Shown here: positions 2,442 through 59,190 of the stretch, one piece after another
How the letters are laid out: the number at the start of each line of letters is the position of its first letter
Position numbering within the stretch: the first letter of the stretch is position 1
Origin: Candidatus Micrarchaeia archaeon
GTDB lineage: Archaea; Micrarchaeota; Micrarchaeia; Anstonellales; Bilamarchaeaceae
Direction of reading: 5' to 3'
Assembly (NCBI GenBank): GCA_041653635.1
Contig: JBAZFC010000001.1
Location: 433,723-497,722 of the forward strand
Length of the DNA: 64,000 bases
The notes under the pieces: generated by a model
Databases searched by the model: none
Told to the model about the DNA's origin: nothing
The model's input: the letters and a program-made list of their open reading frames with translations, nothing else
Translations under genes and position numbers: made by a program

Positions 2442-2795
2442 TCACCTTCTCTTCTTTCTCTTTGGAGCAGCCTTCTTCTTCGCCGCTTTTCTTGCCGGCT
2501 TCCTGGCCACGGCCTTCTTCGCCGCAGGCGCCTTCTTCATGGCGGAATACGGCGGCGCGAACACTGCCGGCCTCGCCATCCCCGGCCTCGGGGGCGGGAG
2601 CGGCCTCATCGCGGGCCTCGCACCCGGCGGGAGCGGCCTGTATATCGGCGTAATGGGCCTCGGCGGGATTGAGCCCGGCCTCGGCGGAGGCAGCGGCCTC
2701 ATCGCCGGCCTCGGAGCGGAAGGGGCCGGCCTGGATGCAGGCGCACCCTCGTCCTTGCCCAGGAAGAACTCCTTAATCGATTTTAGTATGCCCAT
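2442..2795 (-). CDS. Proline-repeat protein with K/A-rich basic C-terminal tail (hypothetical)
   Basis: 117 aa. Tandem PAMRPLPPPRPG repeats, then AKKAVARKPARKAAKKKAAPKRKKRR tail. TATA-like TTTTTATATTTTC about 30 nt upstream on the minus strand. Confidence 0.5.
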   Translation of the reverse strand: MGILKSIKEFFLGKDEGAPASRPAPSAPRPAMRPLPPPRPGSIPPRPITPIYRPLPPGARPAMRPLPPPRPGMARPAVFAPPYSAMKKAPAAKKAVARKPARKAAKKKAAPKRKKRR

Positions 2796-3943: not shown

Positions 3944-5839
3944 TCACTTCAACCGTATCGCTTCCAGGTTCAGGGGCGCCCTCGCCTCCCTCCTAAGCAG
4001 CGATGCAGCCGCGCGTGCGAGGTCGTCCGCCTTGTTCCAGTCCCCGTGCATCGTAAACACGCGTTCAGGGGTGGGCTTGAGGTTGCTCAGGAACGCCATG
4101 AGCTGGTGCCTGTCGCTGTGGCCGGAGAACCCTTCCACGGTCTCCACGCGCATCCTGATGTTCATTATCTTCGCCCTTCCGTCGTCCCCGGTCACGGGTA
4201 TCTCCTTCATGCCGCGCTGTATCTTGTGCCCGAGGGAGAGTGGGCTCTGGTAGCCCACGAATATCAGCGTATTCTTTTCATCCTCGGCCATGAGGCGCAG
4301 GTATTCCACCGAGGGCCCGCCGTTCATCATCCCAGAAGGCGCCAGTATCACCGAGGGCTCGCCAGTAACTATGGTCTCCTTGTCCGTGCCCTTCGCCACC
4401 TTGAGCATCGGGGACTCAAACGGGCTGTTGTTGGAGAGTATGCGCCTCTCTATGCTCTCGCGCAGGTATTCCGGATAAGCGGTATGTATCGCCGATGTCT
4501 CCATGACCATGCCGTCTATGTACACGGGGATGTTGAAGTTCGGGTCCCTCCTCGCGTAGTCCTCCAGCACGAGCATTATCTCCTGGCTCCTGCCGACCGC
4601 GAACACGGGTATGAGGACCTTGCCGCCCTTCGCCGCCGTCTCCTTTATGATATTCACCAGCCGGTCCTCCATGTCCCTCCTGTTCGAGGTGACGTCGTTC
4701 TTCGCCCCGTATGTGCTCTCCAGGAACAAGGTCTCTATCCGCGGGAAATGTGTGTTCGCCGGCTCAAACAATTTCGTATAGCCGAACTTCATGTCCCCGC
4801 TATATACGAGATTATGCAGCCCCTCGCCTATGTGCAGGTGCACCATCGCGCTGCCGATTATGTGGCCCGCGTTGTAGAGCGTCATCTTTATCTCCGGGGT
4901 TATGTCCACCACTTCCCCGTACTCCACCGGCACGACGCGCCTCAATTCCTTCTGGATGTCCTTCTTCCCATAAGGTGGGTCCACACCCAGGGACTTCTTC
5001 ATCAGGTCCACGGAATCCGTCTGGAGGAGCGCCATCAGCTCGCGCGTAGGCGGCGTGCAATAGACGGGCCCGTCGTATCCATATGCATACAAGTACGGGA
5101 GGAATCCCATGTGGTCTATATGGCCGTGGCTGATTATGACCGCGTCCAGCTCTTCCAGCGGGAACCCCATGAAATTCAGGTAGGGGTACGCCTTGCTCGG
5201 CTCGCTTATCACCGGGTTGATTCCCACGTCTATGAGTATGCGGCTGTGCGGCGTCTGCACCAGCATGCACGAACGCCCGACCTCCCTGAACGCGCCCAGC
5301 ATGGACACGCGCACCCACTCGCTGGAGGGCGGGGGCTGGCATATCTTCTTGCCCAGCGAGAGCAGGAATTTCTTCCGGTCATCCGCCTCCGCCATATACC
5401 CCTTCCTTATGCCCCTTATGGTGGCCGAAGGTATCGTCGGGCTCCTGAGCACGACCGGGGACCATCCCGTCCTGGTTATGATTTCCTTGAGTACGCTCCC
5501 GCCCTTCCCTATCACGAGCCCGGGCTTCAGCGCCTCTATGAACACTTCCGAGAAGATGGATGCGAAGGTTATGGAGCTTATGACCGCCTCCTTGGGCACC
5601 ACGCTCTCTATCTCTTTTCGCGCCTTCTCGATGTCCGCCAGCCTGCTCTGGTCCACGCGCACGCTGACCTTCTTGCGCACCGCGCCCGCGAGCTGCTTTA
5701 TGAGCTGGTCGTTCCTGTAGAAGGCGTCGATGTTCTTCACATATATGACTATGTTCAGCCCTTCGGCCTCCACCTTGGTAATCCCGCACTCCGCGGGCAT
5801 TATGTCTGATACTGTTTTCTCTATGTCTTTCTGTTGCAT
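3944..5839 (-). CDS. Archaeal CPSF1-type beta-CASP ribonuclease with N-terminal KH domains (aCPSF1)
   Basis: 631 aa. KH-like GKGG motifs N-terminal, metallo-beta-lactamase HGHIDHMG motif, and beta-CASP C-terminal region. Confidence 0.9.
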   Translation of the reverse strand: MQQKDIEKTVSDIMPAECGITKVEAEGLNIVIYVKNIDAFYRNDQLIKQLAGAVRKKVSVRVDQSRLADIEKARKEIESVVPKEAVISSITFASIFSEVFIEALKPGLVIGKGGSVLKEIITRTGWSPVVLRSPTIPSATIRGIRKGYMAEADDRKKFLLSLGKKICQPPPSSEWVRVSMLGAFREVGRSCMLVQTPHSRILIDVGINPVISEPSKAYPYLNFMGFPLEELDAVIISHGHIDHMGFLPYLYAYGYDGPVYCTPPTRELMALLQTDSVDLMKKSLGVDPPYGKKDIQKELRRVVPVEYGEVVDITPEIKMTLYNAGHIIGSAMVHLHIGEGLHNLVYSGDMKFGYTKLFEPANTHFPRIETLFLESTYGAKNDVTSNRRDMEDRLVNIIKETAAKGGKVLIPVFAVGRSQEIMLVLEDYARRDPNFNIPVYIDGMVMETSAIHTAYPEYLRESIERRILSNNSPFESPMLKVAKGTDKETIVTGEPSVILAPSGMMNGGPSVEYLRLMAEDEKNTLIFVGYQSPLSLGHKIQRGMKEIPVTGDDGRAKIMNIRMRVETVEGFSGHSDRHQLMAFLSNLKPTPERVFTMHGDWNKADDLARAAASLLRREARAPLNLEAIRLK

Positions 5840-6881: not shown

Positions 6882-6981
6882 CGGGCCCGGTGGGATTTGA
6901 ACCCACGACCGCCTGGTCACTCCTGCATTCAGGAGAAGGCATTCGAAGCCAGGCACGCTATCCAAGCTGCGCTACGGGCCC
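6882..6981 (-). tRNA. tRNA-Arg(TCG) with about 25-nt intron in the anticodon loop
   Basis: Acceptor stem GGGCCCG/CGGGCCC, D-arm GCGC..GCGT, anticodon stem CCTGG/CCAGG, T-arm GTGGG TTCAAAT CCCAC. There are 32 nt between the anticodon stem halves, i.e. loop CTTCGAA plus a 25-nt intron containing a CTCCTG/CAGGAG hairpin. Confidence 0.7.
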
Positions 6982-7025: not shown

Positions 7026-7946
7026 TTATTGGGTGAGGATTCGCGCCCCGTTCTCTTCCACTACAACCGTGTGCTCCGCCTGCGCCACCAATCCGCCCCC
7101 CGCCTCTTTCAGCACAGGATATGCCTTCAGCACCTGCATCCTCAGCATCTCCTTCAGCGCGTTGCTCACGAGCAATTTGGAGGGGAACTTCTGCACGAGC
7201 CACCTCTCCGCAAAGGGGAGCATCCCGTAATTATCCAATATGTGATTTAATATCTGCCTGGACTGCCTCATGCGCAGCCCGCCCGGCAGATACAAGGAGA
7301 ATATCTCCACCTGCTCCGTATCCGAGACAAATCCCTTCCCGTCCGTAGCGAAGGGCTCCACCGCAAATATGTCCCCTGCCTGGAACTCGTACGGGTCCTC
7401 GGTCTTCACATTCGGTATGTCTATCCCCGCATGCAGCAGCCCCGTCTTTATCATGTGCCCGGTGAGGTTCGCAATCGGCTTGTACCCGTATCCTTTGATG
7501 GTCTCCTCAACTATCCCGCCGATTTCCCCGACCTTCACGCCCAGCTTTATGCCAGCAATCGCGTTGGCGAGCGCCTTTTCCGCCGCCTCCACCAATTTCC
7601 CGTTCTTGCCGCCCAAATCTATTGTGTACGCGGTGTCCGCTATCGCCCCATTCACGCTCGTCCCGAAATCTATCTTTACTACGTCCGTCTCCTTGAACAG
7701 CGCCTGGTCCCCCTTTTCCGGGGTGTAATGCGCGGCGATTTCATTAATTGAAACATTTGTAGGAAAAGCGGGGAACGCCCCCTCCTCAACTATCATCCCC
7801 TCTATTGTTTCGGCAACGTCAAGGAGGCTCGCATCGGCCATCACGAGCGCCTTGCTCTCCTCCCTTATCTTTGCGGCAATCTTCCCCGCCTGCTCAAATT
7901 CTGAAAGCGGAGCCTCAACAAATTCGTCCATAGGAAGATTTCCCAC
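7026..7946 (-). CDS. map: Methionine aminopeptidase, type 2
   Basis: 306 aa. Archaeal MetAP2 length with the pita-bread fold metal ligand context (DFGTSVNG, HYTP). Confidence 0.9.
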   Translation of the reverse strand: MGNLPMDEFVEAPLSEFEQAGKIAAKIREESKALVMADASLLDVAETIEGMIVEEGAFPAFPTNVSINEIAAHYTPEKGDQALFKETDVVKIDFGTSVNGAIADTAYTIDLGGKNGKLVEAAEKALANAIAGIKLGVKVGEIGGIVEETIKGYGYKPIANLTGHMIKTGLLHAGIDIPNVKTEDPYEFQAGDIFAVEPFATDGKGFVSDTEQVEIFSLYLPGGLRMRQSRQILNHILDNYGMLPFAERWLVQKFPSKLLVSNALKEMLRMQVLKAYPVLKEAGGGLVAQAEHTVVVEENGARILTQ

Positions 7947-13064: not shown

Positions 13065-14246
13065 ATGCCTTCTTTTGGGGAGTTCGCATCTCCTTCCAGG
13101 ATTTTCCGGGACAGGGACGTCCTCTCACCGCATTTCATACCCAACACGCTGCATTTCAGGGAGCACCAGATACGCGAGCTGATGTCCATTCTCGCGCCCG
13201 CGCTGCAGGGCAAGAAGCCGCGCAACCTCATGCTATACGGAAAAACGGGCACGGGAAAAACATGCTGCACGAAGCACGTCTCCAGGAAGTTTGAGGAGGA
13301 GAACCCGAACGCGAAGATAATCTACATCAACTGCAGGATGTACAACAAGCCCTACAGGATACTCTCAAAGGCGATAAAATCCCTCACGGACGGCGTGGAC
13401 AAGCAGGGCTACGGCCTGCCTTTCTATTACGAGAAGATGCTGGAATGGTGCGGAACCGGCAGGCAGCTAATCCTCATCCTTGACGAGATAGACATGGCGA
13501 AGAACATAGATGAGCTCATATATACCCTTACAAGGGCGAACGACGAGCTGGAAAAGGGCGGCGTTTCCCTCATCGGGATTTCCAACCGCCTCACGTTCAA
13601 GGAGGGGCTGGACCCGAGGAGCAAGAGCAGCCTGTATGAGCGGGAGATGGTCTTCCCGCCCTACACCGCGCCGCAGTTGCAGAAGATTTTGCAGCAGCGC
13701 GTGGATCTCGCATTCAAGGAGAACGTGATAAGCGCAGGGGCCATAAACCTCGCGAGCGCCTTCACTGCGCAGGATTCCGGGGACGCCCGTTATGCGCTCA
13801 AATTGCTATTGCGCGCGGCTGAGCTTGCGGAGGAGAGGAGCCTCTCCAGGATTTCGGACGCCGAAGTGAAGGAGGCGAGGGACGTCGTTGAGACCGACCT
13901 CGTGAAGGAAGCTGTGGACAAATTACCTGAGCACCACCAATTGGTTTTGTACGCCGTAGGCCGGCTCACCCTTTCCGGGAGCAAGTACGCGCGCTTTGAG
14001 GACGGGAAGGACGGCTACCTCTTTTCCGGGGATGTGTATGAGGATTATTCCGAGCTCTGCTCCAAGCTGAGGAAGGCGGCCAAGACCGCGCGCTCTTATA
14101 GGAGTTACCTTACTGATTTGGAGATGCTCGGCCTCGTGACCACGGTGGAGAGCGGCAAGGGGATCCGCGGGCACACCAAGCTCATAAAGCTCGGGCACAC
14201 CCCGCAGGAGACCGTCTCCATGATGCGGCAGAAATTCGGTGAATGA
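13065..14246 (+). CDS. cdc6: Orc1/Cdc6 replication initiator
   Basis: 393 aa. LPHRE-type N-terminus (FREHQ), Walker A GKTGTGKT, AAA+ fold plus winged-helix C-terminus. Confidence 0.9.
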   Translation: MPSFGEFASPSRIFRDRDVLSPHFIPNTLHFREHQIRELMSILAPALQGKKPRNLMLYGKTGTGKTCCTKHVSRKFEEENPNAKIIYINCRMYNKPYRILSKAIKSLTDGVDKQGYGLPFYYEKMLEWCGTGRQLILILDEIDMAKNIDELIYTLTRANDELEKGGVSLIGISNRLTFKEGLDPRSKSSLYEREMVFPPYTAPQLQKILQQRVDLAFKENVISAGAINLASAFTAQDSGDARYALKLLLRAAELAEERSLSRISDAEVKEARDVVETDLVKEAVDKLPEHHQLVLYAVGRLTLSGSKYARFEDGKDGYLFSGDVYEDYSELCSKLRKAAKTARSYRSYLTDLEMLGLVTTVESGKGIRGHTKLIKLGHTPQETVSMMRQKFGE

Positions 14247-20115: not shown

Positions 20116-20190
20116 TATCGGGCCCGGGGGGATTTGAACCCCCGGCCTACGGATTAAAAGTCCGCCGCTCTGACCAAGCTGAGCTACGGG
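20116..20190 (-). tRNA. tRNA-Lys(TTT)
   Basis: Cloverleaf read by hand. Acceptor GGGCCCG/CGGGCCC, anticodon loop CTTTTAA, T-arm GGGGG TTCAAAT CCCCC. Confidence 0.85.
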
Positions 20191-20230
20191 CCCAAGAGCA
20201 AACACTATTAACGCATCAAATAGTTTTAAA

Positions 20231-41351: not shown

Positions 41352-42581
41352 CTAGAGAATAATATACGCGTTCCCCTTCTTCGTAATCGTCAAAGCAGTT
41401 TCCCCGGAGAACCCGAACGTCTTCGCATATCCCTTCTCTATCTTTATGCGCATCCCGTCCCTCACGAGCGCCCCGCGGTTGTCAAATATGTATATCACTC
41501 CCTCGCTCCCCTCTTCGTCCGCCACCACGAGCCTTGTCAGGTTTTCCTTCACCCTCTTGCTCTTCTGGTACTCCTTCTGCTCCACGCTCTTCACGAGCAG
41601 CGGAACCGTGGTCACGTTCCTCATGCCGCTTTTAAGCTCCGTGAGATGGGTAATATTCATCTGCTTGTGCCTGTCCTTCGCAACCCTGAACGCCAGCTTT
41701 ATCTCCTCCTCCGCGTTCCTCACCATGTTCTGCATCGCCTTTTTCATGACGTCCTCGTCACCTTCCGAGGCGAGCATCGTATCATAAGCAAGCCTGAACA
41801 GGCTCCCCTTCTCCTCCCTCTCCTCGCGCACCTCCTGCGCCTCAACCGCTTCGGGCGTCTCCAGCTCGCTGGAAATCTCGTCCATCTCCCTTCCGGCCCT
41901 GCCCATGTCCAGCTCCTTAGTCCCCACGCTCTGGAGCCCGAGCTTCCCATCCGTTGAATCTTCCGAGGGCTCTTCGGTTTCCGGCTCCCTTCCCTCTTTC
42001 CCGTTGTTCTCCTTCTTCTCCGGAATCCCCGGCTTCTGCCCCTTCGCCTCGCCCTCGTCGCTTATCACGTGCGTCTCTGCACCTGAAATGACATCCAAAT
42101 AATCAGTAAGCATCTCCTGCACGGCCCTGCCCTTCTGCTCGTTAACCTGGCCGTTCTTGCCGAACGCCTTCATGTAAATCTTTTCCAGGGTGGGGAGCAT
42201 CCTGCCTTTCATCGCGGCGGCCTTCTCCTTGCCCAGCTTCCTCTCCATCAGCTGCTGCAGGGGCCTCATCATCTTCTCGCGCGCCGTTTCCGCCTTCCTC
42301 TCCTCCTCCACGCTCTTCTTCTCCTCGGGCTTCTCGTCCGCGCCGTTCTTGAACACTTCCGCGAACGACATGAGCTCCGGCTGCGCCACCCTCTTTCCAT
42401 CCAGCAGCGTCCTCGCGAGCGTGCTCACGCTCGCATCCTTGTCGTAGGTAAGCTCCAATAGCGCGAAGTTCGCCGCAGGGTCCTCATACCTTGCAAGCTC
42501 TGCCGCGGCCTGCTTCCTGACCTGCGGGTTCGCGTCAAAAGTGAGCGACACTAGCTCATTGAGAGTCGGTTTGCGCGTCAT
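41352..42581 (-). CDS. HEAT-like repeat / low-complexity E,K-rich hypothetical protein
   Basis: 410 aa from internal ATG 42581. N-terminal HEAT/PBS-lyase-like repeats. Confidence 0.5.
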   Translation of the reverse strand: MTRKPTLNELVSLTFDANPQVRKQAAAELARYEDPAANFALLELTYDKDASVSTLARTLLDGKRVAQPELMSFAEVFKNGADEKPEEKKSVEEERKAETAREKMMRPLQQLMERKLGKEKAAAMKGRMLPTLEKIYMKAFGKNGQVNEQKGRAVQEMLTDYLDVISGAETHVISDEGEAKGQKPGIPEKKENNGKEGREPETEEPSEDSTDGKLGLQSVGTKELDMGRAGREMDEISSELETPEAVEAQEVREEREEKGSLFRLAYDTMLASEGDEDVMKKAMQNMVRNAEEEIKLAFRVAKDRHKQMNITHLTELKSGMRNVTTVPLLVKSVEQKEYQKSKRVKENLTRLVVADEEGSEGVIYIFDNRGALVRDGMRIKIEKGYAKTFGFSGETALTITKKGNAYIIL

Positions 42582-43368
42582 CCTTAACACCCAGCTCCTC
42601 CAGGGCCAAACGGAACACGTTGAGGAGCGCATGCCCCTCGTCCTTGGTCGGATTCGCCCTCGCGAGAACCCTCGCGAACGCAACCTTGCACCTTCCCGGG
42701 TTGCGAAGCCTATATCTCGCCGCCATCTTATTAAACATATGCGTGAGTGCGCGCCTCTCCGAAGGCGAAAGCCGCTCTTCCCCCCAAGAGGAAGGGGGGG
42801 CACCCCCCTTCTCTCTAGGGTACTCATAACCCCCCATTTTTGTCCTTGCAAACCCAGCTTTAGCCATCCCACTATCAATGGAATACAGAACCACCGCAAC
42901 CGCATGGCTAAGGTTCAGCACCGGATAGCCCGCGTGCGTTTCCGCATGCACCAGCAGGTCGCACGCGCTTATCTCCTTTTCATTGAGCCCTATCCCCTCC
43001 CTGCCGAAAACCAGCGCTATCCTCTGCCCGCCGCGCTCCCCCAGTCCGGCGCAGAACTTTTTCAGGGGCACCGCCGCCCGTATCGTCCCCTTGTTCCTCT
43101 TCAGGATGCCCGTCGTCCCCACCACGAGGCCGCAATCCCCCACCGCCTCCCGCAGCGTCCCGTACCTCTTCGCCTTTTTCAGGAGCCCCACCGCATGCTT
43201 TGAGAACTTGACAGCGTCGGCCCCCAGCCCGCATTTCGGGCCCGCTATCCTCAAATCAGAAAAGCCGAAATTCTTCATAACGCGCGCGGCCATGCCGACA
43301 TTAACATCGTATTCCGGCCCTACAAGGACCACGCAGAACGTGGGCGCGGCCCCTTTTTTCCCGCCCAT
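42556..43368 (-). CDS. SpoU/TrmH-family RNA 2'-O-methyltransferase with C-terminal extension
   Basis: 270 aa from ATG 43368. SPOUT knot motifs (LVFGREGIGL, AVAVVLY). C-terminal extension contains the in-frame repeat copy E. Confidence 0.75.
   Translation of the reverse strand: MGGKKGAAPTFCVVLVGPEYDVNVGMAARVMKNFGFSDLRIAGPKCGLGADAVKFSKHAVGLLKKAKRYGTLREAVGDCGLVVGTTGILKRNKGTIRAAVPLKKFCAGLGERGGQRIALVFGREGIGLNEKEISACDLLVHAETHAGYPVLNLSHAVAVVLYSIDSGMAKAGFARTKMGGYEYPREKGGAPPSSWGEERLSPSERRALTHMFNKMAARYRLRNPGRCKVAFARVLARANPTKDEGHALLNVFRLALEELGVKDDAQTDSQ
42779..42870 (+). repeat. Dispersed hairpin repeat, copy E (inside the SpoU CDS, in-frame)
   Basis: CCAAGAGGAAGGGGGGGCACCCCCCTTCTCTCTAGGGTACTCATAACCCCCCATTTTTG... 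homologous to copies A-D. Confidence 0.7.
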
Positions 43369-44412: not shown

Positions 44413-46449
44413 ATGCCGGAACCTAAAGGCAAACTTGATTCATCTAATGGAGAGAGGGTAATCAGGCTGGATTCAACTGAGCCATGCGCTCCTAAGGCGA
44501 GGGATTTGCGCGGCAGGGAACCTTGTTCCAGCAGGGATGCAAGGAATGCGCATAATATGAGCGCAAAGATTTCACTTCTCAATCCGTCTGGAGAGGAAAT
44601 TGCAACCGAAACAATTGCTGAAGGCGAAACAAAATCAGTTGGGGGCATTCGCGTAACCGTTTTTGCAGTTGGCATTACTCTCGCAGGATGCGAGTACATA
44701 ACAAATAACTATTATAGTCAGGATGCCACCCAGGAGCCAGACGACGCTGGCGAGCCGGAGATAACTGATGCAAGTGGTGAGGTTTCCATTCCGGAGGCCT
44801 CTGATTCCGAAGCCGAAGCTCCAAACATGTGCGAAACCGCCCCCCGTTCTGAAAGATGCGACATCAGGACCGAAACCAGGTCAAGATGCGTCGCAGGCGA
44901 GAACATTGCAGTCGAGAACAATGGTTATCTGTTCGTGCCCACGGGCATAAGCGAAGACGGAGTGAGCATGAGGGTATTGGATTCTCTTAACAGTTGCAGG
45001 CAGATGGGGGACGACAGCACGCTACAGATTGGGGAAATAGTCATACTTTCCCTAAACGGCGAAACATTCACCGCAATTGCGCCGACGATAGCATACTCGG
45101 ATTCACCGCCGTGGGCAATCCTTGACATTGAGAAATCCGTTGCGGGCCCGGTTTGCGCAGAAGAAATGGACAGGTGCACGGAAAGGTCTATAGATCGGGC
45201 AACCTGTGACACCTACGAAGGGAAGGGCGTTCCATTTGACAACCTCCTTTTCATTCCCGCAAGGATTTACATGGAAAGTTCTGTTCCGGCAGCTGAGATG
45301 ATTGTGCAGGACAAATATAGGGAATGCGAGGTCGTGGGAACAGCCGCAATACTCCAGGGAGAAGAGGGTATCATCACGGTTGGCACGCAGCCTTATCGTG
45401 TAAAATTGGACGAAGCAATCGTTTCCGACCCGTCAATGGGCCTATCCTCCGCAAGATTGGTGATAAAGCGCGGCGCAGGCCCTGACCCTGCAGTTTGCCC
45501 GGATGTGACCGGGACTTGCGAGGATTTCCCGCATGGCAATTGGCTATGCATGGTATATGAGGGGAAGGCTGCGGATTTGGAAGGTGGTCGCCTCATGACC
45601 GTGCGGAGGATATGGGAGGAAGGGGGCGTTAAAAAAGTCACACTTGAGATGCAAGACCTTCATGCTGATTGTGCCGTGGTATATACATTCACTCTTGATG
45701 AGCATACTGATACTGGATCATGGCCATTTGAGTTCCGTGGCAGGGAGTATGGAATACATGTATATTATTTGAATACCGAAGGAGCAACAAAAATGGCAGG
45801 CCTAATTGTGTACCCGAGGACCTGTGACGATGAACGGCCAGCGGACTTTTGCACTTCGCCCTCGCCGACCAGTGTGGAATGCATTACGCGTGATAGCGCA
45901 GCAGTTGAGTTTGATGGCATACATTTTTTCATAAATCCGCTTGAGGACTCAACAATCGGGCCGTTCGCGGAGGTTGTTGCAGAAGATATGTCTGATAGCT
46001 GCCATAGAGAATTTGGCCGTGTTCTTATCAACGTTCCAGGCTATTCATACGTTTTTGCTGGCGAATATTCGTATAAAATAACTGTATCCACAGCCGACCT
46101 TGGTTCCGGGGAGCTTTCTATAACAATAGAACGCGGTGCGCCAACCATATGCGATGGCAGCGAAAGGAGCGAGTACCTTGATGTGGCCGGAGCCCCGCCT
46201 CTAGTCTCGGCTGATGGTGTGCTCACAGTTAGCCTTACAGACATAACAAGGGATGTTCCGCCACGCGCCTCGTTGCTGGTCACGGATACGGTAAGCGGAG
46301 ACGTGGTGAGGCGCGTCCCGTTGCCGGCCGGTGGCACCGCAATTGTGACATACCGCGGAGTGAACTACATAATACTGGTGCACGATGTTTCGTCAGGCGT
46401 AATGCTCATAGACAAGTGGGCATACGCATCCATAGCGACCTGCGAGTAA
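44413..46449 (+). CDS. Large membrane-anchored Cys-rich extracellular protein (hypothetical)
   Basis: Up to 678 aa (alternative start MSAKISLL at 44557). Hydrophobic anchor ending in LAGC, more than 20 Cys, no recognised domains. Confidence 0.55.
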   Translation: MPEPKGKLDSSNGERVIRLDSTEPCAPKARDLRGREPCSSRDARNAHNMSAKISLLNPSGEEIATETIAEGETKSVGGIRVTVFAVGITLAGCEYITNNYYSQDATQEPDDAGEPEITDASGEVSIPEASDSEAEAPNMCETAPRSERCDIRTETRSRCVAGENIAVENNGYLFVPTGISEDGVSMRVLDSLNSCRQMGDDSTLQIGEIVILSLNGETFTAIAPTIAYSDSPPWAILDIEKSVAGPVCAEEMDRCTERSIDRATCDTYEGKGVPFDNLLFIPARIYMESSVPAAEMIVQDKYRECEVVGTAAILQGEEGIITVGTQPYRVKLDEAIVSDPSMGLSSARLVIKRGAGPDPAVCPDVTGTCEDFPHGNWLCMVYEGKAADLEGGRLMTVRRIWEEGGVKKVTLEMQDLHADCAVVYTFTLDEHTDTGSWPFEFRGREYGIHVYYLNTEGATKMAGLIVYPRTCDDERPADFCTSPSPTSVECITRDSAAVEFDGIHFFINPLEDSTIGPFAEVVAEDMSDSCHREFGRVLINVPGYSYVFAGEYSYKITVSTADLGSGELSITIERGAPTICDGSERSEYLDVAGAPPLVSADGVLTVSLTDITRDVPPRASLLVTDTVSGDVVRRVPLPAGGTAIVTYRGVNYIILVHDVSSGVMLIDKWAYASIATCE

Positions 46450-50671: not shown

Positions 50672-50755
50672 GCAGGGGTAGCCAAGTGGCCAACGGCGCG
50701 GGCTTCAGGAGCCCGTCTCTTAGTGGGTTCGGGGGTTCGAATCCCCTCCCCTGCA
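50672..50755 (+). tRNA. tRNA-Leu(CAG)
   Basis: Acceptor GCAGGGG/CCCCTGC, 3-bp D stem, anticodon loop TTCAGGA, long variable arm (class II), T-arm GGGGG TTCGAAT CCCCT. Confidence 0.85.
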
Positions 50756-50855
50756 TCTCCAAGAGGAAGAGGGGGGAACTCCCCCCTCCTCTCTTTAGGG
50801 TAATCATACCTCCCCCCACTTCTCATCGCAACCCTTTGCACGTACTCCTTACGCA
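50756..50855 (+). repeat. Dispersed hairpin repeat, copy A
   Basis: AAGAGGAAGAGGGGGG-AACT-CCCCCCTCCTCTCTT hairpin, then TAGGGTAATCATACCTCCCCCCACTTC...CCCTTTGCACGTACTCCTTACGCA. The tail overlaps the stop codon of the P-type ATPase. Confidence 0.75.
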
Positions 50856-53452
50856 ATGGAAGGAAAACCCTTCCTTGAGCGCATCCCCATCCATTTCCGC
50901 ATCTCAAGATAAGCGAAGAGGAACACGCTGGTCCCCAGCACCACCGCCCAGTGCTCCAGCGCCAGCGGCTTGACCGCAAAGAGCACGTTCAGCTCCGGCA
51001 CATACAGAATCGCCAGGTGCATGCCCATGGTCAGCAACACAGTGAGCACTATCCATTTGTTCGCGAGAATCTCCCTCCACACCGGCCTTTCCAGGGACCT
51101 GCACGCGAACACCTTGGTCTTCTCCATCGCGACAAGCATCGTGAAAACCATGGTCTGCGCGAGCACCATGTCGCCGCCGCCCATAACCCATGCAAATGAG
51201 GCGAGAGTGGCGAATGTCATTATTATGGGCGACTCCACAAGGTACAATTCCATCCCGATCCATATGTTTTCATTCCTCTGCCTAGGCATCTTCTTCATCA
51301 CGTCCCCGCTTATGGGGTCCACCGCGAGCGCCACCGCGGGCAGGCCGTCCGTGACCAGGTTTATCCATAATATCTGTATCGCAACAAGGGGGAGGGGCAT
51401 CCCGAGCATCACCGCGAGGAATATGACCGCCACCTCCGCGATGTTCCCGGAAATCAAAAACGCCACCGTCTTCTTTATGTTCTCATAGATGCCGCGCCCC
51501 TCCTCCACCGCAGCAACGATTGTCGCAAAATTGTCATCAGCCAGCACCATGTCCGAGCTCTCCTTCGCGACCTCGGTGCCGGTTATGCCCATCGCCACCC
51601 CTATGTCCGCCTTCTTCAGGGCGGGCGCATCGTTCACCCCGTCCCCGGTCATCGCGACCACGTGCCCCCTCGCGTTGAGCGCATCAATTATCCTCAGCTT
51701 GTGCGCGGGCGATACCCGAGCATACACCGAAATGCCGTCCACTGCCCCAAGAAATTCCTCTTTCCCCATCGCGTCCAGCTCTTCCCCGGTGAGCACCTTC
51801 CCGTTGCCTATCCCCAGCTCCTCCGCGACCGCCTTGGCGGTGAGCGGATGGTCGCCCGTAATCATCACAACCCTTATCCCGGCGCCCCTGCACAGCCCGA
51901 CCGCCTCCTTCGCCTCTGGCCGCGGGCTGTCCATCATCGCCACTATGCCCACGAAGACCAGCGCCTTCTCCACGTCCCCCTTCTTCGTCTTCCCGTCAAT
52001 GTCCCGGTACGCGAGCGCGAGCGTCCTGTACCCCTTGGAGGTGAGGGAGTCGTTCTCCAGCATTATCGCCTCAGCCTCGCCCCTGCCCAGCGGCCTGCTT
52101 CCTCCCCGTGCCCAAATCCTGGCGCATTTCCCCAGCACCACTTCCGGCGCGCCCTTCGCATAAGCAATATGCTTGTTCCCGCTGCCCCTCACAGTTGTCA
52201 TCATCTTCCTGTCCGAATCAAACGGGAACTCAAACATCACCGGGTTCTCCCTTTCCAGTTCGTCCTTCCAAATCCCGCCTTTCGCCGCGAGGACGAGCAG
52301 CGCACCCTCCGTGGGGTCGCCGACCACTTCCCAGCCCTTCTTCTTTTCCAGCCAGGCGTTGTTGCACAGGGCCCCGATTTTCATCGCCAATTGCAGCCCC
52401 TCGTCCGCGCCCACCGCCTTCCCGCCAGACCTGAACTCGCCCCTCGGCTCATATCCCGAGCCGCCGACCTCGAAAACCTTCCCGCCTACCAGCACCCTCC
52501 GGACAGTCATCTCGTTCCGCGTCAGCGTCCCAGTCTTGTCCGTGCAGATGACGTCCGCGCACCCGAGCGTCTCCACCGATTTTAGTTTTTTCACTATCGC
52601 GTTCCGCCTGCTCATCCTCTGCACGCCCACGGCCAGCGTAATCACGACCACGGCGGGCAGTCCCTCCGGAATGGCAGCCACCGCGAGGCTCACCGAAGTA
52701 AGGAACATCCCCACCGGCTCGAATCCCCTCGCCAGCCCGGCGAGGAATATGAACGCGCAAAGCACGAGCACCCCCACCCCCAGCTGCCTGCCCATCCTGT
52801 CCAGGTCAACTTCCAGGGGAGTCCTCTCCTTCTGCACGGTCTGCACCATCTCGGTTATGCCGCCCATCCGGGTGGCCATCCCAGTCTTCTCAACGAGCAT
52901 CCTTCCCCTGCCCGCGACTATCACCGTTCCAGTCCATGCGCGGTCCTTCCCTGCCTCGTGCTTGTGCACAGGGACGCTCTCCCCGGTGAGCGCCGCCTCG
53001 TCCGCCGCAAGCCCGTACTGCTCCACCACCAATCCGTCCGCGGGCACGCGGTCCCCGGCCTCCAGCAGCACGATGTCGCCCGGCACGACCTCCCGCGCGT
53101 CTATGTTCGCCGCCTTCCCGTCCCTCAGCACGTTCGCTCGGGGCGAGACCATCCTCCTCAACGCCTCAAAGGATTTCTCCGCCTTGTACTCCTGCACGAA
53201 CCCGATTATCGCGTGCAGGAAAACAATCGCAAGTATCATTATCACATCCAGCCCCTCGCCCAGCAGTTGGGCGACTATCGCCGCCGCGATAAGGAGCAAA
53301 ACCAGGAAATCCGTGAACTGCCTCAGGAATTTGACCACTACGTGCTCCCCTTTTTTCTCCCGCAGCTCGTTGGGCCCGTATTTCCTGAAGAGCCTGGCAG
53401 CCTCAGCGCCGCTCAAGCCCGCATACCTTGCCATCGCTTTTTGTTCAGGCAC
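50849..53452 (-). CDS. P-type cation-transporting ATPase (type IIA, Ca2+-ATPase-like)
   Basis: 867 aa. DKTGTLT phosphorylation motif, TGDGVNDAPAL, ten-TM architecture. Confidence 0.9.
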   Translation of the reverse strand: MPEQKAMARYAGLSGAEAARLFRKYGPNELREKKGEHVVVKFLRQFTDFLVLLLIAAAIVAQLLGEGLDVIMILAIVFLHAIIGFVQEYKAEKSFEALRRMVSPRANVLRDGKAANIDAREVVPGDIVLLEAGDRVPADGLVVEQYGLAADEAALTGESVPVHKHEAGKDRAWTGTVIVAGRGRMLVEKTGMATRMGGITEMVQTVQKERTPLEVDLDRMGRQLGVGVLVLCAFIFLAGLARGFEPVGMFLTSVSLAVAAIPEGLPAVVVITLAVGVQRMSRRNAIVKKLKSVETLGCADVICTDKTGTLTRNEMTVRRVLVGGKVFEVGGSGYEPRGEFRSGGKAVGADEGLQLAMKIGALCNNAWLEKKKGWEVVGDPTEGALLVLAAKGGIWKDELERENPVMFEFPFDSDRKMMTTVRGSGNKHIAYAKGAPEVVLGKCARIWARGGSRPLGRGEAEAIMLENDSLTSKGYRTLALAYRDIDGKTKKGDVEKALVFVGIVAMMDSPRPEAKEAVGLCRGAGIRVVMITGDHPLTAKAVAEELGIGNGKVLTGEELDAMGKEEFLGAVDGISVYARVSPAHKLRIIDALNARGHVVAMTGDGVNDAPALKKADIGVAMGITGTEVAKESSDMVLADDNFATIVAAVEEGRGIYENIKKTVAFLISGNIAEVAVIFLAVMLGMPLPLVAIQILWINLVTDGLPAVALAVDPISGDVMKKMPRQRNENIWIGMELYLVESPIIMTFATLASFAWVMGGGDMVLAQTMVFTMLVAMEKTKVFACRSLERPVWREILANKWIVLTVLLTMGMHLAILYVPELNVLFAVKPLALEHWAVVLGTSVFLFAYLEMRKWMGMRSRKGFPSIA

Positions 53453-54240: not shown

Positions 54241-54340
54241 CCTCCAAGAAGAAGAGGGGGGCGCCCCCTCCTCTCTTTAGGGTAATCATACCTCCCCCCC
54301 CCACTTCACTAGGGGGACGCTTTGCACGTACTCCTCACGC
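54241..54340 (+). repeat. Dispersed hairpin repeat, copy B
   Basis: AAGAAGAAGAGGGGGGCGCCCCCTCCTCTCTT hairpin plus a TAGGGTAATCATACC... tail near-identical to copy A. Sits between the convergent psmA and pyrH stops. Confidence 0.75.
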
Positions 54341-54352
54341 GCTTTTCTGCAA

Positions 54353-55036
54353 TCATTGCGAAGAAACAATAGTCCCGGCGTGCCTCTTTCCTTTTACTGC
54401 CTTTTCCAAATCCTTAACATTTTTCCCGCCCACAAAGTGCAGCTCTATCCCGCTCCTTTTCGCGAGCTTGCACGCCACCATGTCAAACACGAAATTAGTG
54501 CCCGGCGCCCTCTGGTCGTATTTCTGCGCCATCTCCAACAGTTGCGCGTGCGTCATCTTGTCAAATTTCTTCGCGGAGGGGTTGCCCTTCGGGTCCGAAT
54601 CGTAAATCCCGTCCACGTTGCTCAGATTGACCAATCTTTTTGCCCCGATTGCCTCCGCGAGCAATACGGAATCCGTGTCCGTAGTAATGCCTGGAATCGT
54701 CCCTCCCATCACCACAATCTTGTGCCCGCCCAGCGCGGCTGCCGCCTTTCCGAAGTCCCTGAACACCTTCGGGTGCGCCACATCCCGGAACAATGCGAGC
54801 ATGAGCTGTGCGTTCAATCTTGTCGCCGCCACAGCCGCTTCGTCCGCAACGAAATTGTTGCCGCAAAATTCCCGCGCGGCGGACGCATATTCCCTCGCAA
54901 CCTTCCCGCCTCCGGTGACAATCCCCAGCTCCTCGCCGCTTTTCATCACCATGTCCTTGAATTCCTTGAGGAACGCGTGGTCTATGCTGCCCGTACCGTT
55001 GATCAAGCTTCCCCCAAGAGAGATTACGACTGCCAT
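54353..55036 (-). CDS. pyrH: Uridylate (UMP) kinase, archaeal type
   Basis: 227 aa amino-acid-kinase fold, closely resembling archaeal UMPK (VTGGGKVAREY..., NVDGIYDSDPK). Confidence 0.75.
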   Translation of the reverse strand: MAVVISLGGSLINGTGSIDHAFLKEFKDMVMKSGEELGIVTGGGKVAREYASAAREFCGNNFVADEAAVAATRLNAQLMLALFRDVAHPKVFRDFGKAAAALGGHKIVVMGGTIPGITTDTDSVLLAEAIGAKRLVNLSNVDGIYDSDPKGNPSAKKFDKMTHAQLLEMAQKYDQRAPGTNFVFDMVACKLAKRSGIELHFVGGKNVKDLEKAVKGKRHAGTIVSSQ

Positions 55037-55086: not shown

Positions 55087-55989
55087 TCAAATCCTGCACG
55101 AAACCCCGTGCTTCAAATAGTATTTCTGGTGGTATTCCTCAGCAGGATAGAATTCGCCCGCAGGCACTATCTCCGTCACAATAGGATTTCTATGTTTCTT
55201 CCCCTCCCCCTCTTTGGATTCCCTCGCCTCCTTCTCCTGTTTTTTGGAATGGAAAAATATCACGGAGCGGTACTGCGTTCCAAAATCCGGCCCCTGCCTG
55301 TTCGGCGTAGTGGGGTCGTGCATCCTCCAGAAAACATCCAGCAATTGCTTATACGATACTTTTGATGGGTCAAACTCCACCCGCACGGATTCCGCATGCC
55401 CCGTCTTCCCGCCGTGCACTTCCCAGTAAGTAGGGTTCTTCGCAGTCCCTCCTGCATATCCCGCGGTGGTGGAAACCACGCCCTTCACGGCATCAAACTG
55501 CTCCTGCACGTGCCAGAAGCACCCAGCAGCAAAAGTAGCAATCTCAGTCTTCATCTCCCCAGCATACGGCTTCAGCGCAGCCGCATTTATGCAATACCTC
55601 TTCCCGGTGGGAGGCGGCCCGTCGTCAAACACATGCCCCAGGTGCGCCCCGCAACGGGCGCACAAAACCTCCTTCCTTTCCATAAAGAGGTCCTTATCCA
55701 CTTTTATCCGCACATTCAATTCAGATACCGGCTCCCAGAAGCTCGGCCACCCGGTGCCGGACTCAAACTTCCTGCCCACCTCAAACAAATCAGTCCCGCA
55801 GCACACGCACTGGTACAGCCCCCTTCCCAGAGGAACATCGCACTTGCCGGTGAAGGGCATTTCCGTCCCTTTCTTCCGTGTAATTTCAAACTGTTCCGGG
55901 GTGAGGATTTTCCTCCACTCCGCGTCCGCCTTCACTACTTCCGGCAATTCCTCAACCGCCTTCTTCCTGGCGTTGAAAATCCTTACCAT
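55087..55989 (-). CDS. msrBA: Fused peptide methionine sulfoxide reductase MsrB-MsrA
   Basis: 300 aa. N-terminal MsrB (CxxC...RYCINAAAL) plus C-terminal MsrA (GCFWHVQ). Confidence 0.85.
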
Positions 55990-57454: not shown

Positions 57455-57514
57455 CTATTTAATTACTATTTGAGTAATCCCCCCGATGCTTCTTACCGAG
57501 AAATACGCCCCTCA
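57455..57514 (+). repeat. Upstream duplicate of RFC promoter plus first 30 nt of rfcL CDS (direct repeat 1)
   Basis: GATGCTTCTTACCGAGAAATACGCCCCTCA matches 57656-57685 with 1 mismatch. Preceding about 30 nt also align with the genuine promoter region. Confidence 0.7.
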
Positions 57515-57612
57515 CCCAAAAACGCGGGGAGGGCACTCCCCCCATTTTTAGGGTTCATTCTGACCCCCTCCCACTTCACTTTGAAACCCTTTGCCCGCAC
57601 TCCTTACGCACG
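57515..57612 (+). repeat. Dispersed hairpin repeat, copy C (bidirectional terminator-like)
   Basis: CCCAAAAACGCGGGGAGGGCACTCCCCCCATTTTTAGGGTTCATTC...CCCTTTGCCCGCACTCCTTACGCA. A5-hairpin-T5 arrangement. Confidence 0.75.
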
Positions 57613-57625
57613 CGGTTTTCCTTAA

Positions 57626-57685
57626 TCTTATAAATTGTCTTTCAGTAATTCCTGCGATGCTTCTAACCGAGAAATACGCCCCTCA
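57626..57685 (+). promoter_or_regulatory. rfcL promoter (TATA TTATAAAT at 57628-57635) plus start of CDS, direct repeat 2
   Basis: TATA about 26 nt upstream of ATG 57657 (leaderless). Confidence 0.5.
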
Positions 57686-59090
57686 AAAAATTGAGGAAAT
57701 ACCCGGCAACACCGAGCTTAAGCAGAAGCTCAGGCGCTGGGCCCTCAACTGGGGAAGGGGCGAGCCGGGCAAGCCAATCCTGCTCACCGGCCCCACGGGC
57801 ACAGGCAAAACTGCTCTTGCCGTAGCCCTTGCCACGGAAATGGGGCTTGAGCTTGTGCAGATGGGCGCGAGCGAGCTGCGCAACAGGGAACGTGTGGAAA
57901 AAATAATGCATGGGGCGATGATGGCGTCCACCCTCTCCGGGAAAGGCAAGCTGGTTCTAATAGACGACGTTGATGCGATGTCCGGAAGGGAGGACTCGGG
58001 TGGCGTCTCCTCCATAGCGTCCGTCCTCCGCTCCCCAGCCCAGCCGATAATACTCACCGCAACCAACGCATGGGAAAAGAAGATATCCTCCCTCCGCTTC
58101 CTCTGCGACATCCTCACGCTCAAGAGGGCGATAGCCCCATCCATTGCGCGCATCCTCTCCCGCATCGCGGAGAAGGAGAGGATAGAGTGCCCGGTAGAAA
58201 AAATAGAAGGAATATCCGAGAACGCCAACGGTGACATACGAGGCGCGATAAACGACCTGCAGGCCTGCTCCCCAGGAATGCGCGACCGCGAGAAGGACAT
58301 GTTCGCGAGGATGTCCGCGCTCTACCGCTCCTCCACCTATTCCGAGGCGAGGGCGGCGGGCTTCGGGGATGTTGAGCACGACTACTTCAAGCTCTGGATA
58401 GACGAAAACCTGCCTGCTGTCTTTTCCGGAAGCGAGTTGGCGGACGCCTACTCCTCCCTTTCAAGGGCGGACATCTTTGACGGCAGGATACATTCCCGCC
58501 AGTACTGGGGCTTCCTCCGCTACTCCGGGGATTTGATGTGCGCAGGCACCGCTCTCGCTCACCCCGGCGCGGGCCAGAGGTTCATACGCTTCTCCTTCCC
58601 TTCCTACCTGCGCCAGATGTCCGCGACCACCGCCACGCGCGCAATCCTCCGTTCCCTCCGCTCCAAGGCGGGCAGGAGGCTGCACACCTCAGGCAAGGAG
58701 GCGGAAGGATCCCTCCCCATCCTCGCATTCATGCACGCGAACAGCCCCGCCGAGGTTGAATCCTTCTACGGGCTTGATGAAAAGGAGGTAGAGCTTCTCT
58801 CCTCCATGCTCCCGAAGGGAGTGCATGTGGTGAAGCCGGAGAAGAAAGAGGAGAAAAAGAAGGGCAAAAAAGAGGCAGATGGGAAGGAGAGCAAAGCCGC
58901 ACCGGAAGGAGCAAGCGAAACCGGGAAGGCAAGCCCCCCTGTCCGCGCGGCTGAGAAGGAAGTGAAGCGCGAGGAGAAAAAGGAGAAGGGAGTTCCCGGG
59001 AAGGAATCCGGTGAATCCACGAAGAAGGACCTCCTCCCCCCTAAGAGGCAGCCGCCGGCCCGCCATTCCAAGCTCAGCGAGTTCTTCTAG
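57657..59090 (+). CDS. rfcL: Replication factor C large subunit
   Basis: 477 aa. Clamp-loader AAA+ (LLTGPTGTGKT), MLLTEKYAP N-terminus typical of RFC. Confidence 0.85.
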   Translation: MLLTEKYAPQKIEEIPGNTELKQKLRRWALNWGRGEPGKPILLTGPTGTGKTALAVALATEMGLELVQMGASELRNRERVEKIMHGAMMASTLSGKGKLVLIDDVDAMSGREDSGGVSSIASVLRSPAQPIILTATNAWEKKISSLRFLCDILTLKRAIAPSIARILSRIAEKERIECPVEKIEGISENANGDIRGAINDLQACSPGMRDREKDMFARMSALYRSSTYSEARAAGFGDVEHDYFKLWIDENLPAVFSGSELADAYSSLSRADIFDGRIHSRQYWGFLRYSGDLMCAGTALAHPGAGQRFIRFSFPSYLRQMSATTATRAILRSLRSKAGRRLHTSGKEAEGSLPILAFMHANSPAEVESFYGLDEKEVELLSSMLPKGVHVVKPEKKEEKKKGKKEADGKESKAAPEGASETGKASPPVRAAEKEVKREEKKEKGVPGKESGESTKKDLLPPKRQPPARHSKLSEFF

Positions 59091-59190
59091 AGAAAACGCG
59101 GAGGGAGCGCCCTCCCCATTTTCTTCTATCTTTCTGCCCCTCCCCACCTCCGCTTGGAAACGCTTTGCACTGCTTTATCCATCTCCCCCG
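59091..59190 (+). repeat. Dispersed hairpin repeat, copy D (terminator-like, 3' of rfcL)
   Basis: AGAAAACGCGGAGGGAGCGCCCTCCCCATTTTCTTCTATCTTTCT...GCTTTGCACTGCTTTATCC. Hairpin plus T-rich tract directly after the rfcL stop. Confidence 0.7.

Follow-up and report, generated by a model that had tools for sequence, protein, structure and literature searches.

A dispersed family of short hairpin repeats, probably non-autonomous, that lands at gene ends and tRNA boundaries in Micrarchaeota-type archaea

The 64,000-nucleotide stretch of archaeal DNA analysed here (the window; 55% G+C), which comes from contig JBAZFC010000001.1 of a Candidatus Micrarchaeia genome, carries five copies of a short hairpin repeat that, with a probability of roughly three in four, we read as belonging to a non-autonomous repeat family which has spread in a Micrarchaeota-type DPANN lineage and which in its full form is a small transcription unit. 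The elements are ~65–125 nt long, and more than 20 copies were found in total, seven of them within ~84 kb of the source genome. Aligned orthologous loci show that close relatives have gained and lost copies over times comparable to the divergence of species, and that the copies settle at the 3' ends of genes, at tRNA boundaries with the hairpin end facing the tRNA, and now and then within coding sequence. Because the genomes of DPANN archaea are among the smallest and most compact of any cells, one would not expect selfish repeats to last in them; the family has spread regardless. Our verdict is that the element is a selfish or insertional repeat, distinct from the classical miniature inverted-repeat transposable element (MITE), of a recognised kind that is akin to the Rickettsia palindromic elements (RPEs) and to repetitive extragenic palindromic (REP) sequences, and a new variant of that kind in DPANN archaea.

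An initial annotation of the window had described five copies, called A to E, of a palindromic repeat. Their sequences are as it described them, and all five are significant homologues: a profile hidden Markov model (nhmmer) trained on A, B and C only recovered E (E=4.8e-8) and D (E=6.9e-7) and matched nothing else in the 64 kb, and a covariance model (CM) built on twelve full-length copies found exactly these five in the window, every one on the minus strand. Pairwise identities among them are 0.63–0.82, each above the maximum of 200 shuffles. The identity of about 85% given for A and B was measured at 84% across 102 nt, and the homology claimed for C and E holds. D and E are degenerate copies, E being a short form and D having a decayed conserved tail. 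Resemblance among GC-rich terminators was considered as the source of the similarity and rejected, since the other hairpin-like matches in the window are intracoding (the GC-rich hairpins near 7761, 47817 and 63171 lie within coding sequence and are unrelated to the family) and the ordinary intergenic spacers are short and free of such a hairpin. The copies and the features around them are listed below; coordinates are those of the window unless an L-numbered contig is named, and the scores are CM bits.

Copy A: 50756..50860, minus strand; full-length, type 1, 102.4 bits; the order on the minus strand is block 1 (GCGTAAGGAG...), block 2 (GAAGTGGGGGG), P2 and the long hairpin P3.
tRNA-Leu(CAG): 50672..50755, plus strand; called by ARAGORN and Rfam; 3' end 3 nt away from the hairpin end of A.
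P-type ATPase gene: 50849..53452, minus strand; last codon and stop within the far end of copy A.
P-type ATPase stop codon TAA: 50849..50851, minus strand; inside block 1 of copy A.
Copy B core: 54241..54346, minus strand; full-length, type 1, 110.1 bits.
Copy B extension: 54347..54365, minus strand; homologous to the purine-rich sequence next to the promoter in other copies.
First direct repeat (DR1): 57460..57514, plus strand; former promoter of rfcL together with the first 29 coding nt, old ATG at 57486.
Copy C: 57512..57615, minus strand; full-length, type 2, hairpin AAAAACGCGGGG...CCCCCCATTTTT, 94.2 bits.
Purine-rich spacer and TATA box (TTATAA): 57616..57637, relevant on both strands; read from the sequence.
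Second direct repeat (DR2): 57631..57685, plus strand; duplicated rfcL 5' end, the present gene start, ATG at 57657.
Copy D: 59086..59185, minus strand; decayed type 2, 30.5 bits (E=2.2e-4); begins 0 nt past the rfcL stop codon.
Copy E: 42781..42876, minus strand; short, degenerate, 35.9 bits (E=1.6e-5); in frame within trmJ and translated as ...GFARTKMGGYEYPREKGGAPPSSW...
trmJ: 42556..43368, minus strand; SpoU/TrmJ-type RNA methyltransferase of 270 aa (PF00588 on the 100% identical protein P0001).
Copy F: ~2.4 kb past the right window end, oriented as A–E; type 2, 2 nt after the stop codon of a VTT-domain gene.
Copy G: ~2 kb past the left window end, in the opposite orientation; type 2 without the 5' block.

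The strongest evidence that these copies move comes from syntenic relatives, whose coding DNA is 72–88% identical to the window (contigs L013–L020 include those fetched through TrmJ and RfcL homologues). Empty sites were found among them at all five window positions, which answers in favour of mobility the comparison of orthologous loci that had been proposed. Site A is empty in L013 and L015, and in L016 it holds a short copy of another subfamily with a 38-nt nested hairpin. The empty site retains CTTCCTTACGCAA at the ATPase stop codon, identical to the element tail (11–12 nt match exactly), and this is either the remnant of a lost copy or microhomology used in insertion. Copy A does lie between tRNA-Leu and the ATPase gene, as originally placed, but its tail contains the ATPase stop codon, and the ATPase ends ...KGFPSIA* in the window versus ...RNRHVA* in the relatives, with the same GCGTAAGGA in both. 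Copy B is likewise correctly located between the convergent psmA and pyrH genes, yet what had been described as lying between their stops is a ~125-nt insertion that itself supplies the end of pyrH: in L013 and L015 the site is empty and the two stops are 9 nt apart, whereas the window has a 125-nt block (54241–54365) whose extension encodes the final three pyrH codons and the stop, so that the protein ends SSQ* instead of GAP*. The same gap in L019 carries the short nested-hairpin subfamily, and pyrH there ends SIE*.

At site C the empty form is found in L017, L018, L019 and L020, where 52 nt separate the upstream gene from rfcL; in the window 171 nt (57515–57685) are inserted past codon 9–10 of rfcL, consisting of the element, a TATA-bearing spacer and a second copy of the rfcL 5' end. 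At site D the insertion (59091–59183) is absent from L017, L018 and L019 and present in L020 with boundaries identical to those of the window, and at site E the insertion is shared by the window and L013 and missing from L014, L015 and L016, a net difference of 63 nt. No target duplication is seen at B, D or E when empty and filled sites are compared. L015, over 20.7 kb of synteny, has 0 copies against 3 in the window. The derived 38-nt nested hairpin is common to copies at four loci in three assemblies, and both the tRNA-Leu 3' end and the psmA/pyrH gap hold different subfamilies at the identical site in different lineages. Such empty sites and subfamily swaps at orthologous loci refute the view that the copies are conserved gene-specific signals.

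Placement at gene boundaries, which had been put forward for the family, holds for A, B and D and fails for E, which is in frame in trmJ, and for C, which is within the duplicated rfcL 5' end. Of 21 aligned TrmJ homologues, seven carry a 21-residue insert that close relatives lack (one insert-free homologue is 86% identical), and the insert is patchily distributed over two clades. Two further proteins (P0021 and P0023) carry the peptide at the C-terminus instead, through an insertion at the 3' end of trmJ, with an expanded loop, and both the internal and the 3'-end insertions were verified in DNA by the CM. An AlphaFold2 model places the insert in a predicted linker, of low predicted local distance difference test (pLDDT) score, between the SPOUT domain and the C-terminal helices. 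When the 30-residue peptide was compared with 1.84 billion representative proteins, it returned one TrmJ representative and two chance eukaryotic repeat proteins, and a concatenated peptide query for in-frame copies in other proteins gave no match; because TrmJ was the only protein family found in the peptide scan, in-frame insertion looks rare.

Copy C, which sits within codon 10 of rfcL, has severed DR1 from the gene, and DR1 matches the intact rfcL upstream region of L017–L020. The direct repeat around it (DR1/DR2, repeat D13) is 55 nt long and 84% identical and holds the rfcL TATA box and start codon; this duplication of promoter and start codon rescues the rfcL gene that copy C had interrupted. 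In L007 the stop codon of the phosphoenolpyruvate carboxylase gene is the TAA of the conserved GCGTAAGG in block 1 of the element. As read from these loci, landing thus has three outcomes: replacement of a stop and C-terminus, addition of an in-frame peptide, or, at rfcL, duplication of promoter and start. A separate case concerns eIF2-gamma in L020 (6290–7813), whose open reading frame (ORF) has 507 aa rather than 400: a 1-nt difference before the normal stop leads to read-through into an element copy and past it. The extension is a frameshift or an assembly error, and no call is made there for the 138-aa convergent gene that the relatives have.

On the minus strand the full-length element consists, in order, of a TATA box, a purine-rich spacer of ~17 nt, block 1 (consensus GCGUAAGGAGURCGNGCAAAG), a variable linker, block 2 (GUGAAGU followed by a G run), P2 (a 4-bp hairpin) and P3, a GC-rich hairpin of 14–15 bp that ends in UUGG; ~60 nt of conserved sequence lie outside the hairpin. 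Two hairpin types recur across species, type 1 (AAGAGAGGAGGGGG..., ending ...CUCUUGG) and type 2 (AAAAAUGGGGGGAG...GCGUUUUU, ending ...GCGUUUUUGG). Short copies consist of P2 and P3 only, one subfamily having the nested 38-nt hairpin, and D, E and G are without the 5' blocks. The hairpin loops accept expansions of 38–49 nt. Type-2 hairpins are bordered by A5 and T5, and the type-2 copies C, D, F and G have T4–T5 on both sides, whereas type-1 copies have only CTCTCTTT or CTTCCTCTT.

Pairing within the element is maintained: 97% of cells are paired, against 52–68% in slid controls, compensatory changes occur at 7 pairs in P3 and P2, and none of the shuffles matches the observed covariation. G·U cells give the strand, since 26 pair solely on the minus-strand reading and 0 solely on the plus strand, which indicates that the hairpin is maintained on the minus strand; the orientation first given for the element must therefore be reversed. 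From this alignment evidence, selection on the hairpin most plausibly acts at the RNA level. A promoter is suggested by TATA boxes 14–19 nt upstream of block 1 in L004, L012b, L010, L005 and copy C, and in both B and C the sequence flanking block 1 is homologous to the TATA-bearing region. On the minus strand the box of copy C precedes block 1 by 17 nt, and on the plus strand it precedes the new rfcL ATG by 22 nt; the spacer and TATA region of this copy have homologues in the TATA regions of L004, L006a and L012b. If the 22-nt TATA spacing of rfcL is applied, the predicted start site is GCGTA|AGGAG, and the 5' helix P1 would then fall outside the RNA. We propose that the element would be transcribed from its own promoter or by read-through, and that its hairpin may be retained by selection on the RNA as a stable 3' end, as a 3'-UTR hairpin or as a tRNA leader removed by RNase P.

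Other functions were considered. A small ORF behind the Shine–Dalgarno-like AAGGAG of block 1 was rejected, as the GTG is not conserved and indels break all frames between copies, and so was an antiterminator-like interaction between block 2 and the hairpin's 3' arm, which does not exceed shuffles, shows no co-variation between subfamilies and is a composition effect. Only tRNAs pass the Rfam gathering threshold in the window, and a permissive search gave no family, the best sub-threshold match on copy A reaching 22 bits against a cut-off of 58.8 bits. Reading of both strands gave no convincing C/D box, H/ACA or ribozyme motifs.

The search for further copies extended the family well beyond the window. 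Contigs identical to it, used to extend the source genome on both sides, added copies F and G, and the family recurs in no fewer than eight further Micrarchaeota-type assemblies or metagenome contigs. Near-identical copies occur in the metagenome-assembled genomes (MAGs) DeMMO3_23, POMEDNA-A14, 'Ca. ainarchaeum' STC_97 and MAG258 (pattern scan, one genome per species) and in four additional contigs from a pattern scan of metagenomes (JGI); more diverged or short copies were found in L013, L016, L019, L020, L021 and L022, and two pattern scans of viral contigs gave 0 matches. Contigs L003, L005 and L022 terminate in copies, as does L024 at both of its ends, which is expected because the element is a repeat.

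These additional copies disclose a bias towards tRNA genes. At the loci with near-identical copies in other genomes the hairpin end lies 1–2 nt from the 5' end of an opposite-strand tRNA gene, the tRNAs adjoined in this way being Thr(CGU), Thr(UGU), Gly(GCC) and Ser(GCU); in L003 the element adjoins a tRNA 3' end. Copy G has its hairpin end 2 nt away from an intron-containing tRNA, on the 5' side. The site upstream of tRNA-Thr(CGU) is occupied by type 1 in L004 and L006 and by type 2 in L012. Altogether a tRNA boundary is abutted (0–3 nt) at 7 of ~17 distinct loci, always via the hairpin end, for a rough binomial P=2e-5 when tRNA genes are expected to make up 3.9% of gene boundaries. At eight loci the hairpin stands immediately upstream of the tRNA, and as there is no space for another promoter between them, the tRNA must be transcribed through the hairpin. 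Some 80 nt from one such unit (element/tRNA-Thr), an ORF with a LAGLIDADG homing-endonuclease domain (L004, 3556–4377, minus strand) immediately precedes a tRNA 3' end and may occupy an intron of the neighbouring tRNA (tRNA-Ser in L006).

Where the element stands bears directly on the reading of it as a terminator. The initial annotation saw bidirectional terminator modules, a reading that fits poorly with the type-1 copies 1 nt upstream of tRNAs, where the hairpin has to be read through. The broader proposal that the copies are ordinary terminators or gene-specific 3' signals, alike through composition or through co-descent with their genes, can appeal to the copies D, F and those of L020, which begin 0–2 nt past a stop codon, to the A5 and T5 around type-2 hairpins and to the convergent genes on either side of A and B. 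We nevertheless consider it very improbable: it is contradicted by the empty orthologous sites, it leaves the ~60 nt of conserved non-hairpin sequence and a homology far beyond shuffles without explanation, other window genes end without a hairpin, some copies are intracoding, and those directly upstream of tRNAs leave no promoter space, so that the hairpin is read through. Archaeal termination depends on U tracts, and aCPSF1/FttA is the general archaeal transcription termination factor; a homologue of it (with KH, metallo-beta-lactamase and beta-CASP domains), relevant to 3'-end formation, is encoded at 3944–5839 on the minus strand.

A second alternative, of which the initial annotation had named a version (a small ncRNA family), takes the conserved structure at face value and makes the family one of functional structured small RNA genes, ~100 nt long and with their own promoter. 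Their RNA would often be co-transcribed with a tRNA and freed when RNase P cuts at the 5' end of that tRNA, and the dispersed and intragenic copies would be by-products. Conserved blocks with variable linkers, the compensatory changes in P3 and P2, the G·U pairs confined to one strand, the constant distance to the TATA box and loop expansions of the sort seen in structured RNAs all speak for it, as does the recurrence, in several species, of copies 1–2 nt upstream of tRNA-Thr(CGU), Thr(UGU), Gly(GCC), Ser(GCU) and an intron-containing tRNA. A gene family of this kind is hard to reconcile with copies in frame within trmJ and inside the rfcL coding sequence, with five of five window sites being empty in close relatives and the long syntenic L015 being copy-free, with the loss of the 5' blocks in D, E and G, or with three copies that are antisense to the adjacent tRNA; moreover, no Rfam family and no C/D or H/ACA boxes were found, and the predicted start, 22 nt from the TATA box, lies inside P1, so that helix P1 may be missing from the RNA. 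We judge this alternative possible, though unlikely, as a full account; a functional small RNA, for example a tRNA leader, may coexist with mobility.

A bolder combination of the two properties, about equally doubtful in our estimation, is a mobile small-RNA gene, that is, a promoter and a structured RNA of ~100 nt that would copy itself without a transposase of its own and home to the base of the tRNA acceptor stem. Homing on either side of a tRNA with the same end would be guided by the tRNA-like fold or by the enzymes of tRNA processing or replication. Were this true, the family would found a class of its own among the mobile elements of archaea, with an RNA that might also serve as a leader or regulator for tRNAs.

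The suggestion of a MITE-like or selfish family was right in so far as this is a dispersed, inserting repeat, small, multicopy, non-coding and polymorphic in its insertions, as the empty sites and subfamily swaps attest, but the structural hallmarks of a MITE are absent. There are no terminal inverted repeats (TIRs): the termini, CCAAGAGG... and ...CTCCTTACGCA, are not complementary, and the sole inverted repeat is the internal hairpin near one end. There is no constant short target-site duplication (TSD) either, its length being 0 at B, D and E and an atypical 55 nt at C. Spread would be of the copy-and-paste type without a dedicated element-encoded enzyme, through host replication or recombination (template switching, microhomology) or through an enzyme acting in trans. 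Copying by replication or recombination is compatible with the missing TSD at B, D and E, the 11–12 nt of identity at the empty site A and the long duplication at C, and a trans-acting enzyme is also compatible with these three observations.

Another rival reading is that the copies derive from IS200/IS605- or REP-type elements and are moved by a single-strand (HUH/Y1) transposase encoded elsewhere, with precise excision and insertion into the lagging-strand template. It would account for the lack of target duplication at B, D and E, for empty sites consistent with seamless excision, for the hairpin at one end and for the orientation of the copies, since A–F, which lie on the right of the Orc1/Cdc6 gene, all point the same way and G, on its left, is reversed. 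That gene (13065–14246, plus strand) stands between G and the other six copies, and the flip across it could reflect replication direction; the origin position is, however, an assumption and seven copies are few, and GC skew and intergenic AT content are uninformative for a replication origin, with no AT-rich spacer or skew shift near Orc1/Cdc6. The remaining features fit poorly and make this origin improbable, more so than a small RNA gene family. Nineteen junctions share no conserved 4–5-nt target beside the hairpin end; each element has a single substantial hairpin, near one end, and not one at both ends as in IS200/IS605; the hairpin begins CCAAGAGG or AAAAACG, with no GTAG head; all copies are singletons, with no inverted REP doublets; no Y1 transposase, RAYT or TnpB was found among the ~30 ORFs scanned with Pfam; the strand-specific pairs would lie on the would-be leading-strand template; and the 55-nt duplication at C is a misfit.

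Several observations also weigh against the non-autonomous repeat that we favour. The window shares copies A and D with the more distant GCA_975961585.1, yet closer relatives lack them, and allele exchange by recombination, or precise loss, could explain such off-tree patterns as well as new insertion does. The usual signatures of transposition, terminal inverted repeats and a regular target duplication, are missing, and no transposase, integrase or reverse transcriptase was found by Pfam in ~20 window ORFs and 10 copy-adjacent ORFs. Within the reach of the peptide search of other protein families, which returned TrmJ only, in-frame insertion is not widespread. Finally, the conserved blocks, the compensatory pairs and the fixed spacing of 1–2 nt upstream of four different tRNA genes, found in several species, could point to a functional RNA.

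Among known systems, the behaviour of the family is closest, by analogy, to RPEs and to REP-like or terminator-like repeats. RPEs are palindromic, transposase-less repeats of ~100–150 nt that occur in intergenic DNA, near or within RNA genes, and in frame in conserved protein genes as tolerated surface or linker peptides (PMC10969869). The present element is like them in size, palindrome, in-frame translated insertion (here in the trmJ linker) and reduced-genome host, the likeness being one of behaviour, with no relationship in sequence expected; it differs in its archaeal host, in the rarity of in-frame copies (trmJ only), in its bias to tRNA boundaries and gene 3' ends, and in having a full-length form with a TATA box, fixed polarity and one hairpin end. 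REP sequences and REPINs, mobilised by RAYT, are likewise short extragenic palindromes at gene ends without target duplication, may stabilise or terminate transcripts and possibly show an orientation bias; here, in contrast, no GTAG head or inverted doublets are seen and no RAYT in the ORFs scanned, ~60 nt are conserved outside the palindrome, and some copies are intragenic.

Classical MITEs (the Sulfolobus MITEs, the Correia elements) can deliver promoters or terminators to neighbouring genes (PMC10969869), and the family shares with them its small size, multiple copies, lack of coding sequence, presence/absence polymorphism and nested insertions, whereas it is without TIRs, a short regular TSD or a recognisable parent insertion sequence in the ORFs scanned. 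SPRITE of Streptococcus pneumoniae is a terminator-like dispersed repeat (PMC10969869) whose hairpin-terminator-like core is placed after genes, as here, but it is a bacterial Rho-independent terminator, whereas our type-1 copies have no good U tract and are read through upstream of tRNAs. A small RNA joined to a tRNA in a DPANN archaeon, with its end set by tRNA processing, would be a further point of likeness, this time to the tRNA–C/D box small RNA units reported in Nanoarchaeum, in which the small RNA is co-transcribed with the tRNA; unlike them, the element has no visible C/D or H/ACA boxes and also occurs away from tRNAs, antisense to tRNAs and inside genes.

Three other classes were considered and rejected: integron attC sites, because the copies are flanked by housekeeping genes in synteny and conservation extends beyond the structure to the sequence itself; the template and variable repeats of diversity-generating retroelements, because no reverse transcriptase was seen in the ORFs scanned and the copies are intergenic; and origin-recognition boxes, because the copies extend over more than 60 kb and adjoin tRNAs in other genomes. 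Literature searches yielded nothing specific on such an element in DPANN or Micrarchaeota.

The family has rewritten gene ends, changing the C-termini of the ATPase, pyrH and phosphoenolpyruvate carboxylase, has added a peptide to a tRNA methyltransferase and has forced the promoter/start duplication of rfcL, an essential clamp-loader gene; it also forms the 5' flank of several tRNA genes, whose transcription must pass through it or start within it. The MITE census of PMC11602168 relies on tools that require TIRs and TSDs, and such tools would miss the element; lacking the inverted repeats and target duplications that MITE-finding software uses, elements of this kind have probably been missed in archaeal MAGs, and assemblies break at them as well. 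That the hairpin end so strictly faces tRNA boundaries provides a concrete, testable handle on a possibly new mechanism of insertion.

Some further observations concern the same stretch and its relatives. A fused MsrA/MsrB gene (55087–55989, minus strand), located between pyrH and a 165-aa gene and also found in L019, is missing from L013, L015, L017 and L018, and is thus a whole-gene indel among close relatives. A 678-aa ORF without a Pfam domain (44413–46449, plus strand) marks a variable locus, its place being taken by a 497-aa or a 493-aa ORF in L014 and L016 and by none in L013 and L015. In L019 (3116–3572) a HicA/HicB toxin–antitoxin pair lies between the 162-aa and 124-aa genes, an arrangement seen neither in the window nor in the other relatives. 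Beyond the right window end, a 23S rRNA gene (L023, 6063–8965, plus strand) lies ~3.6 kb away, separated from copy F by a 1.2-kb stretch without a called gene and with no 16S rRNA gene adjacent to it on the contig. Rfam calls a 100-nt tRNA at 6882–6981 (minus strand) that ARAGORN missed; it probably contains an intron, and its 5' and 3' parts are common with tRNA-Lys at 20118–20194 (repeat families D17–D19). A tandem repeat at 2581–2743 (plus strand), with a spacing of 93 nt and 79% identity, encodes the Gly/Ala/Leu-rich N-terminal region of a phosphoribosyltransferase-domain protein.

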